Shown one piece after another: positions 50,352 through 52,473 of a DNA stretch of 64,000 bases. The notes beneath the pieces are model-generated. The model saw nothing but the letters and a program-made list of their open reading frames with translations. It was not told where the DNA came from and searched no databases. Every line of letters begins with the position of its first letter. Within the stretch, counting starts at the first letter, position 1. A program made the translations under genes and the position numbers. The stretch lies in NCBI RefSeq assembly GCF_057098645.1, contig NZ_CM169472.1; one strand, given 5' to 3'.

Positions 50352-50362
50352 GGTTGTCAAAG

Positions 50363-50385
50363 GGAGCTGCGGCTCCCTTTTTATT
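50363..50385 (+). terminator. Rho-independent terminator after emrB
   Basis: GGGAGC-TGCG-GCTCCC hairpin followed by TTTTTAT. Confidence 0.6.
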
Positions 50386-50608
50386 TGCTCATTCTGTAAA
50401 CGGTTGTTTTATCCACTCATTCGGTGTATCTTTTCGCCGCCCCAAACTCTTCCATTCACCATTAACCGGTTCTGAGCATTCGCTCAGGTTGTTAATTCTC
50501 TTTTTCCTTCGCCCTCGCTTTCGCGGGTGATACTCACATTTTTCTTTTAACCCCATAACTCGCACCCTCGCGGGCGTACATTTATTACACACAAAATAAT
50601 GGATTATT

Positions 50609-51316
50609 ATGAATACCCAACGGAAATACGGGAGAACCTGGCATTATCCTTTCTCCCCTGGCACCACCAGCGATGACCGCATTAACGCCGATTACTGGCA
50701 GGATTTACAGGCCATTGCGCAACTGGTGCACACAGAAAAACTCGACGGCGAAAATAACTGCCTTAACCGCTACGGCGTGTTTGCCCGTTCCCATGCTGCA
50801 CCTACGCAGTCGGCATGGACTTATAAAATTCGCCAGCGTTGGCAACTGCTGAAAAACGATCTCGGCGATCTGGAACTGTTTGGTGAAAATCTCTACGCCG
50901 TTCATTCCATTGAATACCGCGCGCTGGAACAGGACTTTTACCTGTTTGCCGTTCGCTGCCAGGATATGTGGCTGAGCTGGGAAGAGGTGCAGTTTTACGC
51001 CGCTCTGTTTGATTTCCCCTGCGTTCCCGAAATCTCCGGTCCGCAGCCGGGGAATGATGAAAAAAGCTGGCAACGTGATTTTCTGGCACTGACCAATGCG
51101 CGCGGCGCGTTCGATCCCTGGGATACACAAACCGGGCAACCCTGTACGCTGGAAGGCATTGTCAGCCGGAATCGTGATGCGTTTTCCGTCGCTGACTTTT
51201 CGCATAACGTCTTCAAGTATGTGCGCAAAAATCATGTCAAAACCACCGTGCACTGGAAACGACACTGGCAACGGGCGCGGATGGCCCATGAGTTCGCTTA
51301 TGGAGAACAGTCATGA
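50609..51316 (+). CDS. ATP-dependent polynucleotide (RNA) ligase-like nucleotidyltransferase
   Basis: 235-aa ORF; motif I KxDG (HTEKLDGEN), motif IV-like TLEGIVSRN, lysine-rich motif V-like [10 protein letters not shown]; 4-bp ATGA overlap with the next gene. Confidence 0.5.
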
Positions 51317-51969
51317 TTTGGCAACTTACCGACGATAAACGCTGGTCGGCGCTACGTCAGCGTTTTAGCTGGGTTGAGGAGATGCATCACACGCCACAAG
51401 ACCCGGAGCATCATGGTGAAGGCGACGTCGGCGTGCATACCGAAATGGTGCTTAACGCCCTCGTTACTCTGCCAGAATTCCAGCAACTCCCCGCTCAACA
51501 GCAGGAAGTTTTATGGGCGGCGGCGTTATTGCATGATGTTGAAAAGCGCAGCACTACCGTGCAGGAAAACGGACGTATTCAGTCGCCGGGCCATGCTCGT
51601 CGGGGCGAACTGACGGCCCGGCTGATTTTGTGGCGCGATATCCCAACGCCGTTCGTGCTGCGCGAGCAAATCGTTGCGCTGGTGCGTCTGCATGGGTTAC
51701 CGCTATGGTTACTGGAACGTCCGGAACCGGAGCGTTTGCTGCTCACGGCTGCAATGCGCATCGACACGCGTCTGCTCGCTTTGCTTGCTCGTGCCGATCT
51801 GCTTGGTCGCCAAAGCCCGGATCGGCAATCAATGCTGGAACGCATCGATCTGTTCGAGCTGTTTTGCCAGGAGCAACAGTGTTGGGGAAAAGTGCGCTCG
51901 TTCGTGTCTGATTCCGCACGCTGGCATTACCTGACCCATGAGCAAAGTTCTCCTGATTTTGTTCCCTGA
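51313..51969 (+). CDS. HD-domain metal-dependent phosphohydrolase
   Basis: 218-aa ORF; HD signature [10 protein letters not shown] ... LLHDVEK. Confidence 0.55.
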
Positions 51970-51993
51970 GAGGCTGAACCTTTTGAGGTCATT

Positions 51994-52425
51994 TTGCTGT
52001 GTGGCTTACCGGGTATGGGCAAAGATCGCTATATCAGTAAACAGTGCCAGGGAATTGACGTTATCAGCCTTGATGATATGCGGCGGCGAATCAATGCCAG
52101 CCCGGATGACAAAACCGCTACCGGGCGTATTGTGCAACAGGCAAAAGAAGAGGCGCGCGTTTTTTTACGCCAGAAAAAGCCGTTCATCTGGAATGCAACG
52201 AACATTACCCGCCAGCTGCGTAGCCAGCTCATCAGCCTGTTTACGGCTTACGGCGCACGAGTAAAAATCGTTTATCTTGAAGTGCCATGGGCGCAATGGA
52301 AGCAGCAAAATGCCAGACGCGAGTATGCAGTTCCTGACGCGGTCGTGATGCGGATGGCCTCAAGGCTGGAAGTTCCTCAACCTGATGAAGCACATAGCGT
52401 GGAGTATCGGGTGATTGAAAGGTAA
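51994..52425 (+). CDS. P-loop nucleotide/polynucleotide kinase-like protein
   Basis: 143-aa ORF from a TTG start; Walker A-like (VILL)CGLPGMGKD at the extreme N-terminus; in the same frame as the HD gene, separated by one TGA and 8 codons. Confidence 0.45.
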
Positions 52426-52430
52426 AAAAA

Positions 52431-52466
52431 CCGGGCGGTGGTGTCACCTGCCCGGCTTCTTTTGTT
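52431..52466. terminator. Bidirectional rho-independent terminator between the kinase-like gene and luxS
   Basis: A7 run, CCGGGCGGTG-GTGT-CACCTGCCCGG hairpin, T-rich run. Confidence 0.5.
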
Positions 52467-52473
52467 CCACTGA

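Follow-up and report, generated by a model that had tools for sequence, protein, structure and literature searches.

A two-gene LIG/HD-Pnk cassette between emrB and luxS in Escherichia coli, with HD-Pnk a pseudogene in an O145:H28 strain

The block between emrB and luxS in the window, the 64,000-nucleotide stretch of DNA analyzed here (contig NZ_CM169472.1, assembly GCF_057098645.1), is a two-gene cassette made up of LIG and HD-Pnk, one of which is a pseudogene. We read the pair as a translationally coupled operon, the form that the bacterial LIG/HD-Pnk cassette takes in E. coli. The homology, the domain architecture, the synteny, the distribution of the alleles and the purifying selection are established directly; the enzymatic activities, the substrate and the effects of the stop codon are inferred. 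This reading as a whole, including the roles in end healing and ligation, is given a probability of about two in three. The cassette belongs to an already described family, represented by DRB0100/DRB0098 of Deinococcus radiodurans and by the LIG/HD-Pnk pair of Runella slithyformis, and the copy here is a decayed member of it. The message is modest: an annotated pseudogene inside a known cassette type, and no new system. The features of the block are as follows.

50359..50380, plus strand: intrinsic terminator hairpin after emrB (9-bp stem, 5 GC pairs)
50400..50500, plus strand: conserved non-coding block 5' of LIG (alignments across genera)
50609..51316, plus strand: LIG, 235 aa, intact (Pfam RNA_ligase, E = 4.8e-28)
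51313..52425, plus strand: HD-Pnk gene, 370 codons, pseudogene in this strain (same-frame translation, RefSeq)
51313..51969, plus strand: ORF of the predicted HD phosphoesterase domain, 218 aa (family-invariant His/Asp kept)
51967..51969, plus strand: TGA stop in place of the Trp219 codon (A for G at 51969; TGG in other E. coli)
51970..52425, plus strand: remnant of the predicted kinase (P-loop) domain (P-loop and fold matches)
52424..52464, no strand assigned: bidirectional terminator common to the cassette and luxS (from sequence; a terminator scan detects part of it)

Layout, boundaries and distribution

The original prediction described three co-directional ORFs, and all of them (50609-51316, 51313-51969 and 51994-52425) are present on the plus strand between emrB and luxS. 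They do not amount to three genes. The second and third ORFs lie in the same frame with a single TGA between them, and this common frame, together with the single-base difference from an intact gene, rules out three separate genes. The third ORF was said to open with a P-loop. This is an artefact of the stop, and the ORF seems to open there because the true N-terminus of the gene lies 5' of the stop. At the upstream junction, the LIG stop codon overlaps the HD-Pnk ATG in an ATGA at 51313-51316.

Both terminators that had been claimed are found. The hairpin after emrB, at 50359-50380, reads AAAGGGAGC-TGCG-GCTCCCTTT and is followed by a T-run. An equivalent is kept in other Enterobacteriaceae in alignments across genera, and the terminator separates the cassette from emrRAB transcription. 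On the luxS side, the common terminator has a stem of CCGGGC (52431-36) and GCCCGG (52450-55), with an A-run 5' and a T-run 3'.

A weak sigma-70 promoter may lie in the conserved leader, with a putative -35 element TTGTTT (50404-09), a 17-nt spacer and a -10 element TATCTT (50427-32). The assignment is a reading of the leader by eye; a consensus promoter scan of the LIG leader called no promoter. LexA and sigma-54 sites were also looked for by eye upstream of LIG, and none was seen. The leader may also hold a hairpin (50471-50488), whose 7-bp stem is invariant in the alignments across genera while its loop differs. RNAalifold returned one invariant hairpin with zero covariation in the LIG leader, the covariation being absent because the stem never varies. 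Rfam gave no match in the leader, its only match being MicA, outside the block. A structured RNA in the leader was rejected on the Rfam and RNAalifold results.

The cassette is accessory in E. coli, as had been proposed. It is carried by 998 of 5,426 genomes (~18% of complete genomes) and always lies between emrB and luxS. Intact copies are found in E. coli Nissle 1917 and in the type strain ATCC 11775. K-12 is without it, and there emrB and luxS are 63 bp apart, in keeping with the adjacency stated in the original prediction. The block was also called inserted, which does not hold in the sense of a fresh insertion. Five further Enterobacteriaceae genera have the cassette between emrB and luxS as well, which points to an old resident of the site that has been lost from most E. 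coli. Recent insertion, or a mobile element, is ruled out by this common site, by the absence of plasmid copies of the E. coli cassette among the genomes surveyed, and by the K-12-type 63-bp spacer, which is unrelated sequence with no clean excision scar. Further afield, relatives are present in at least 486 species genomes, and among the best matches are mostly Enterobacterales and Bacteroidota. Relatives also occur on Deinococcus megaplasmids and other large plasmids, and LIG homologues occur in jumbo phages. The cassette has dN/dS values of 0.03-0.22; it is under purifying selection and is more than a pair of chance ORFs.

Domains of LIG and HD-Pnk, and the nonsense codon

LIG is predicted to be an ATP-dependent RNA-ligase-like protein consisting of the adenylyltransferase domain only. 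The ligase motifs noticed in the first ORF (KxDG, EG-V and a lysine-rich motif) are invariant or nearly so in 33 homologues: K44 in TEKLDGEN, E182-G183 in EGIV, and K203, R206 and K207 in FKYVRK. E93 is likewise invariant or nearly so, and motifs I, III, IV and V are all present. K44 is the predicted adenylylated lysine. The profile search places the protein inside the Pfam RNA_ligase family (E = 4.8e-28). LIG and DRB0100 share 35% identity (E = 1e-26), and K40 of DRB0100 aligns with K44. The lineage-specific changes in LIG number 13 synonymous and 1 non-synonymous.

A PDB sequence search with LIG gave spurious hemocyanin matches only, and fold comparison was therefore used. The AF2 model of LIG is a single domain with a pLDDT of 83. 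Its best Foldseek matches are NgrRnl, the Trl1 ligase domain, Rnl3 and T4 Rnl2, and its fold is closer to RNA-ligase adenylyltransferase domains than to DNA ligases. The T4 ligases proposed for comparison do match, through the adenylyltransferase domains of Rnl2 and Rnl1. Each PDB fold match is to a larger ligase and is confined to its adenylyltransferase domain, and in its 235 residues LIG has no appended OB, N-terminal or C-terminal domain by model and Foldseek comparison. Such appended domains mark the known families: a C-terminal tRNA domain in Rnl1, a C-terminal domain in Rnl2, an N-terminal and a dimerization domain in Rnl3, and an N-terminal domain in Rnl5. Lacking the family-specific domain, LIG is a member of none of the four. 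Its TM score (query) is ~0.5 against each, at 13-20% identity, with no family clearly preferred.

HD-Pnk is predicted to join two enzymes in one chain, an HD phosphoesterase at the N-terminus and a P-loop polynucleotide kinase at the C-terminus. The HD signature (H...HD) reported in the second ORF is invariant across the family. Residues H34, H42, H74-D75, H94, H127 and D162 are the same in 13 homologues, and all are retained here. Of 13 family members, 9 have a Pfam HD match (best E = 1.8e-6), the match of the E. coli protein itself being weak (E = 0.14). The HD region is also matched by NCBIfam HDIG (E = 7.5e-4) and by the CCA-adding enzyme HD region (E = 8.4e-6). The Pfam and NCBIfam results for HD-Pnk contain no HAD (DxDxT) or calcineurin-type phosphatase.

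The P-loop seen in the third ORF belongs to a region that matches Pfam AAA_33 with E = 1.9e-31. The P-loop GLPGMGKD is conserved, as are D254, R257 and R336, and K237, D254 and R257 align with K21, D38 and R41 of Clostridium thermocellum Pnk. The fold also agrees with a kinase: the closest folds are C. thermocellum Pnk, mammalian PNKP and T4 Pnk, and the TM score (target) against the C. thermocellum and T4 enzymes is 0.72-0.74 at 21-27% identity. TIGR04075 matches HD-Pnk through its kinase part alone. We considered whether GKD in place of GKS/T is a sign of inactivity and rejected this, since GK[D/N] is kept across the E. coli/Bacteroidota clade under purifying selection. Over its full length (residues 5-369) HD-Pnk is 29% identical to DRB0098 (E = 4e-35). 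Profile, homology and fold evidence thus back, as predictions, all three activities that had been drawn from motifs.

In strain DCE7 the intact orthologue is one 370-aa gene. In the window, the HD and kinase domains are not in one uninterrupted polypeptide, owing to the TGA at codon 219 (51967-51969). DCE7 has TGG (Trp219) there, a one-base difference, and three other Escherichia also have TGG; the four sequences read directly are all TGG. RefSeq lists the gene of this strain among pseudogenes, on account of an "internal stop". Counted as the exact TGA-containing 61-mer, the nonsense allele is present in 26 of 979 carrier genomes and absent from 953, and every genome with this allele and a stated serotype is O145. 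Programmed recoding, or selenocysteine, at the TGA is ruled out by the TGG of other strains and the restriction of the allele to one clonal lineage.

A G to A change in the O145:H28 lineage turned Trp219 into a stop in the interdomain linker. The AF2 model shows residues 209-223 as coil, and kinase strand beta-1 spans residues 224-230. With the TGA in the linker, the strain would still make LIG intact and the HD domain on its own, and functional kinase would probably be scarce or absent. We infer that the pathway is crippled in this strain.

It is doubtful that the cassette still works despite the stop, whether by UGA read-through by tRNA-Trp, which would restore Trp219, or as a split enzyme restarted at TTG 51994. 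Of the E. coli stops UGA leaks most, being misread as Trp, which counts for read-through. The usual level of read-through, a percent or less, counts against a working cassette. The stop falls exactly in the interdomain linker, leaving both domains otherwise complete in the model, and the region 3' of it has no frameshifts and few extra changes. The lineage-specific changes there are 2 non-synonymous and 1 synonymous, numbers too small to decide. TTG 51994 (codon 228), 5 nt after a GAGG, is the sole plausible restart, and a restart there would cost half of beta-1, a core strand, by removing residues 224-227. The RefSeq label for the split gene, pseudogene, also speaks against a working cassette.

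Gene neighbourhood and proposed function

In all 80 species loci examined, HD-Pnk is immediately preceded by LIG on the same strand. RtcB adjoins the cassette in 25 of the 80, and 15 of these 25 also have PrfH, a release-factor homologue and RF-1-domain protein. In Serratia, Bacteroides, Dysgonomonas and Mucilaginibacter, rtcB-prfH is co-oriented with and directly upstream of LIG/HD-Pnk. Neither rtcB nor prfH is found beside the E. coli/Enterobacteriaceae cassette or within the 64-kb window. RtcB2-PrfH repairs ribosomes damaged by colicin E3 (PMC9223846), and jumbo-phage ligases of the LIG kind have been linked to tRNA repair (PMC7824862). The RtcB/PrfH adjacency supports a role in RNA or ribosome repair. 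Other partners vary: a PARG gene lies between the ligase and HD-Pnk genes in Deinococcus, a Tpt1 gene lies upstream of the Runella pair (PMC6097658), and a PARG/Tpt1 partner is absent from the E. coli, Serratia and Bacteroides cassettes. Our literature search found no paper that connects an RNA ligase with emrB-luxS or an HD domain with PrfH.

Judging from homologues, the HD domain of HD-Pnk would use a transition metal to remove 2',3'-cyclic, 3'- or 2'-phosphates, and the P-loop domain would phosphorylate a 5'-OH. LIG would react with ATP to form ligase-AMP at K44 and then act on the healed 5'-phosphate end. The HD domain of Runella HD-Pnk reportedly removes 2'-, 3'- and cyclic phosphates. 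Of the Deinococcus radiodurans proteins, DRB0100 becomes adenylylated at K40 and DRB0098 acts as a 5'-kinase (PMC1997131). In Runella, HD-Pnk is credited with 2',3'-phosphoesterase and 5'-OH kinase activities, and its ORF overlaps that of the ligase upstream (PMC6097658). End healing and sealing is the literature reading for these homologues (PMC6097658, PMC1997131). The original prediction of an RNA end-healing and sealing module therefore stands in broad outline, with the correction that the healing gene is a pseudogene here.

The most likely substrate, in our analysis, would be translation-apparatus RNA cut by ribotoxins, because rtcB-prfH precedes the pair in other taxa and jumbo phages carry LIG homologues. 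A more specific proposal is that LIG/HD-Pnk forms a second, ATP-dependent arm of a ribosome and tRNA damage response, working with or backing up RtcB-PrfH, with a break in a ribonucleoprotein as its substrate. Such a break, for example a ribotoxin-cut rRNA in a stalled ribosome, would explain the failure of two laboratories to seal naked oligonucleotides. We hold this proposal only tentatively and think it doubtful. If it is true, the presence, absence or pseudogene state of the cassette would be one reason why strains differ in their susceptibility to colicins or other ribotoxins.

DNA breaks could be the target instead. HD-Pnk would then act like mammalian PNKP on 3'-phosphate and 5'-OH ends, and LIG would seal or process nicks after oxidative or radiation damage. 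Expression of the homologous D. radiodurans operon rises after DNA damage (cited in PMC11833690), and the operon has been discussed as a DNA repair operon (PMC1997131, PMC11833690). Mammalian PNKP also ranks high among the fold matches of the kinase domain, and the paper on Runella HD-Pnk has a title, given in the reference list of PMC6097658, that speaks of a DNA/RNA end-healing enzyme. The induction and the title mean that RNA specificity should not be taken as settled. We nevertheless judge DNA-break repair quite unlikely, as the LIG fold is nearer to RNA ligases and carries no OB or DNA-binding domain, and DRB0100 failed to ligate DNA (PMC1997131). RtcB and PrfH, which recur as neighbours, are RNA repair genes, as is Tpt1 in Runella (PMC6097658), and the jumbo-phage homologues of LIG belong with ligases linked to tRNA repair (PMC7824862).

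Strand joining itself may be the wrong assumption. LIG could use its lysyl-AMP chemistry to mark an unusual end or molecule, such as a 2'-phosphate or an ADP-ribosylated end, with HD-Pnk preparing or reversing the marks. DRB0100 and the Runella ligase, studied in two independent laboratories, self-adenylylate and sealed none of the DNA or RNA substrates tried (PMC1997131, PMC6097658). LIG is a bare adenylyltransferase domain, and NAD/ADP-ribose enzymes do appear in such clusters, PARG in Deinococcus (PMC11833690) and Tpt1 in Runella (PMC6097658). Marking is unlikely, however, given that motifs I, III, IV and V are invariant, as expected for a true three-step ligase, and that PARG and Tpt1 are missing from the E. 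coli, Serratia and Bacteroides cassettes; the failed sealing in vitro may reflect a missing substrate or partner. Far less probable is a repair or immunity arm of an anti-phage defence or toxin-antitoxin system, which the original prediction had suggested and which the accessory, patchy distribution would fit. PADLOC has no model that matches LIG or HD-Pnk. The block holds only two genes between two terminators, with no nuclease or toxin gene, and its site, which stays the same across genera through vertical inheritance, is not a defence island.

Under the preferred reading of an end-healing and ligase cassette, LIG/HD-Pnk would be a widespread repair module whose ligase charges itself with AMP yet has no known substrate. 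The recurrent rtcB-prfH-LIG-HD-Pnk order offers a concrete substrate hypothesis, damaged ribosomal or transfer RNA. Intact copies in tractable E. coli, the O145:H28 nonsense allele and isogenic-like cassette-free strains would make it testable by simple genetics.

Comparison with known systems

A universally conserved, functionally described operon had been named as a finding that would count against the original prediction. The family is indeed partly characterized, which goes some way towards this, but the cassette is not universally conserved in E. coli (998 of 5,426 genomes). The closest described arrangement is DRB0100/DRB0099/DRB0098 on megaplasmid MP1 of D. radiodurans, where, as in E. 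coli, the ligase comes first and the genes are co-directional and overlapping (PMC1997131). DRB0100 has the same TEKLDGEN motif I as LIG and is likewise an adenylation domain alone, and DRB0098 has the HD and kinase domains in the same order as HD-Pnk. The Deinococcus operon differs in the PARG/TIGR02452 gene between ligase and HD-Pnk, which E. coli lacks. DRB0098 also has a P-loop of GSGKS rather than the GMGKD of the E. coli/Bacteroidota clade, a longer linker (413 aa in total) and, unlike the HD-Pnk of this window, no nonsense codon.

[quoted passage not shown] The same paper places Tpt1 and a methyltransferase-HIT pair upstream, and E. coli is without both. Emticicia and Dyadobacter, of the same bacterial family as Runella, have HD-Pnk proteins 53-55% identical to that of E. 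coli in the same gene order. A homologue search seeded with Emticicia returned no protein named Runella among its matches, and the link between Runella and E. coli consists of the shared architecture, the gene order and these same-family relatives.

T4 Pnkp with Rnl1/Rnl2 and C. thermocellum Pnkp/Hen1 likewise combine a 5'-kinase with a 2',3'-phosphoesterase and an ATP-dependent ligase. The predicted phosphoesterase of the cassette is of the HD type, whereas that of T4 is of the HAD type and that of C. thermocellum of the calcineurin type. The cassette ligase is without the C-terminal specificity domain of these systems, and the domain order and the split into genes differ from both. The block has no further gene and so, unlike C. 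thermocellum Pnkp/Hen1, no Hen1 methyltransferase.

Fungal and plant Trl1 combines the same three activities that are predicted for the cassette. The ligase domains of Candida glabrata and Chaetomium thermophilum Trl1 compare with LIG at E ~1e-5 to 2e-4, TM ~0.5 and 13-16% identity. In Trl1, a 2H cyclic phosphodiesterase leaves a 2'-phosphate, which the ligase requires. The esterase of the cassette is an HD domain and not 2H, LIG is without the Trl1-specific C-terminal ligase subdomain, and Trl1 is one of several equally distant fold matches. The label "split Trl1-like" is therefore better dropped. The remaining comparison is with RtcB2-PrfH. RtcB is a GTP-dependent 3'-phosphate ligase, and the RtcB2-PrfH proteins are unrelated to LIG/HD-Pnk, but the two are alike as sporadic, accessory RNA-damage modules.

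Gene content of the emrB–luxS block

The block between emrB and luxS is a cassette of two genes. The original prediction described three, and its ORFs were all found (50609-51316, 51313-51969 and 51994-52425). However, the second and third lie in one common reading frame: translation of 51313-52425 gives a continuous 370-codon sequence whose sole break is a TGA at 51967-51969. E. coli DCE7 carries TGG at this position, and its RefSeq annotation is a single 370-aa gene. E. coli O145 strain RM9872 is identical to the window across the queried stretch, and in RefSeq the O145 copy is a pseudogene ("internal stop"). 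The block therefore comprises LIG, an RNA-ligase-like protein of 235 aa, and HD-Pnk, an HD phosphoesterase fused to a P-loop kinase. The gene order is emrR-emrA-emrB, block, luxS, MicA, gshA.

Features of the locus (window coordinates)
50359-50380, terminator 3' of emrB
50609-51316, + strand, LIG, intact ORF
51313-52425, + strand, HD-Pnk, 370 codons, pseudogene in the window strain
~52424-52464, bidirectional terminator common to the block and luxS
53058-53129, + strand, MicA sRNA between luxS and gshA (Rfam RF00078, 83.9 bits)

Both predicted flanking terminators are thus present, and emrB and luxS are indeed neighbours in K-12, separated by 63 bp. The ATGA overlap between LIG and HD-Pnk points to translational coupling. 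MicA sits as expected for a K-12-like arrangement. The non-coding block 5' of LIG (50400-50500) is conserved among Enterobacteriaceae genera. It holds a hairpin (50471-50488) whose 7-bp stem is invariant while the loop varies, and a candidate weak promoter (TTGTTT, 17 nt, TATCTT). This block had no Rfam match and showed no covariation.

Ligase and end-healing domains

The ligase motifs predicted for the first ORF hold. LIG matches Pfam RNA_ligase (E = 4.8e-28). When 33 homologues of Enterobacterales and Bacteroidota are aligned, its motifs vary little or not at all. These are motif I (K44), motif III (FGEN, E93), motif IV (EG(I/V)V, E182, G183), and motif V (FKYVRK, K203, R206, K207). A sequence search of solved structures with LIG detected none. 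The AlphaFold model is a single domain (pLDDT 83), and its best solved-structure matches by fold comparison are all RNA-ligase adenylyltransferase domains (Naegleria Rnl5, the fungal Trl1 ligase domain, archaeal Rnl3, T4 Rnl2, trypanosome REL1, and T4 Rnl1), with DNA ligases scoring lower. TM was ~0.5 and identity 13-20% for every RNA ligase matched, which does not favour any one named Rnl family. Those families are defined by appended domains, which LIG lacks.

The HD signature and kinase-type P-loop read in the other two ORFs were borne out as halves of HD-Pnk. In the N-terminal half, the H...HD...H...D residues are invariant, Pfam HD matches 9 of 13 family members, and there is similarity to the HD region of CCA-adding enzyme. 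The intact protein matches Pfam AAA_33 over residues 226-355 (E = 1.9e-31). Its kinase half aligns by sequence and fold with several kinases (Clostridium thermocellum Pnk, T4 Pnk, mammalian PNKP, and Mucorales RNA 5'-OH kinases), and the P-loop lysine K237 and catalytic Asp/Arg pair D254/R257 are conserved. The P-loop reads GMGKD, not GxGKS/T (GLPGMGKD at 52012-52026, versus GPSGSGKS in DRB0098, the D. radiodurans counterpart). Decay was rejected as an explanation, this being a conserved clade trait: the loop ends GK(D/N) throughout the E. coli/Bacteroidota clade, versus the usual GK(S/T), and GKS in the Deinococcus homologue.

Decay and history of the cassette

In the AlphaFold model of intact HD-Pnk (pLDDT 92), residue 219 lies in the coil leading from the last HD helix to kinase strand beta-1 (residues 224-230), a position from which the ORF upstream of the TGA is predicted to encode a complete HD domain. 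The kinase part could be expressed in just two ways. One is read-through of the UGA: tRNA-Trp can misread this codon as Trp, which would restore the original Trp219. Otherwise, translation could re-initiate at TTG 51994, which has GAGG 5 nt before it; a start there removes half of beta-1. In the window strain the kinase is probably lost for the most part, and the pathway would be crippled.

The cassette occurs in 998 of 5,426 complete E. coli genomes, always chromosomal and always at the emrB-luxS site. The exact TGA-spanning 61-mer is found in 26 of 979 matching genomes, all O145 (O145:H28 or O145:NM) where a serotype is stated. Nissle 1917 and ATCC 11775, the type strain, lack this 61-mer; in both, the annotation gives an ordinary protein and no pseudogene. 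Purifying selection acts on both genes (dN/dS 0.03-0.14 for LIG, 0.11-0.22 for HD-Pnk); on the window's own lineage LIG has 13 synonymous changes and 1 non-synonymous. The Budvicia aquatica LIG homologue (L028:5309-5977) has an in-frame stop codon, apparently a second, independent decay.

A recent insertion was rejected, as the same site is occupied in other Enterobacteriaceae genera. The cassette lies 3' of emrB in another Escherichia sp., Phytobacter, Klebsiella spallanzanii, Kosakonia, an Enterobacter, and Superficieibacter, with luxS on its far side wherever the compared sequence reaches that far. Because of this shared emrB-side site, we conclude that the cassette is old at the locus and was lost from most E. 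coli. The K-12 spacer (L003:1553-1615) has its own bidirectional terminator. Neither end of the 2.1-kb block (50352-52473) has sequence in common with it, and it was rejected as a clean deletion scar because it is unrelated. Spacer and block are probably alternative alleles, rather than an insertion and its empty site.

Neighbours and known counterparts

When a single genome was scanned for each species, relatives of the cassette were found in at least 486 species. Among the best 80 of these loci, LIG is directly upstream of HD-Pnk on the same strand in all 80, and an RtcB gene is adjacent in 25. The 2017 Runella HD-Pnk paper reportedly noted HD-Pnk homologues across many phyla, frequently sharing an operon with the ligase. 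In 15 of the 25 loci, RtcB and LIG are separated by PrfH, a protein with an RF-1 domain. The co-oriented four-gene array rtcB-prfH-LIG-HD-Pnk occurs in Serratia (L012-L016), Bacteroides (L029, L036 (e.g. 3067-7107), L037, L045, L053, L056, L071), Dysgonomonas (L059), and Mucilaginibacter (L083). RtcB2-PrfH rescues and repairs colicin E3-cut ribosomes (PMC9223846). A literature search found no paper connecting the PrfH/RtcB array with the cassette. The pair neighbours Tpt1 and a methyltransferase-HIT protein in Runella (PMC6097658), and in Deinococcus PARG, which cleans ADP-ribosylated nucleic-acid ends (PMC11833690). Given such varied neighbours, the pair behaves as a portable two-gene core joining other RNA-end-processing genes. 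The proposed role as the repair arm of a defence system found no support, as no PADLOC defence model matched LIG or HD-Pnk.

Jumbo phages encode LIG homologues (33-45% identity), which fit their described RNA-repair repertoires (PMC7824862). Those in records H101-H115, from jumbo phages of 300-735 kb, stand alone. Beside the homologue in Sinorhizobium phage Phosso (L085:2986-3615) no HD-Pnk is annotated, the neighbours being only hypothetical proteins.

The cassette belongs to a known LIG/HD-Pnk kind, and is decayed in the window strain. Its interpretation as an end-healing and sealing module stands in part: the heal-then-seal biochemical logic is well grounded by homology, but to our knowledge the sealing step of a LIG-type ligase has never been demonstrated. 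LIG is 35% identical to D. radiodurans DRB0100 (E = 1e-26), with K44 aligned to K40; HD-Pnk and DRB0098 share 29% identity along the full length (E = 4e-35). DRB0100 is adenylation-domain-only, forms an AMP adduct at K40 and ligated neither DNA nor RNA, and DRB0098 has 5'-kinase activity (Blasius et al., PMC1997131). The D. radiodurans megaplasmid operon runs LIG, PARG, HD-Pnk. DraRnl, an Rnl5-type "RNA ligase (ATP)" (L084:6838-7866), lies ~2 kb away on the opposite strand, so two different ATP-dependent RNA ligases cluster on MP1.

Runella slithyformis HD-Pnk joins an N-terminal HD 2',3'-phosphoesterase to a C-terminal 5'-OH kinase, and its ORF overlaps that of the ligase just upstream (Shuman laboratory, PMC6097658). 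That ligase forms ligase-AMP and sealed none of the substrates tried (PMC6097658). By description, architecture and overlap are the same as in the E. coli cassette. In Emticicia and Dyadobacter, of Runella's bacterial family, HD-Pnk is 53-55% identical to the E. coli protein and the gene order is identical.
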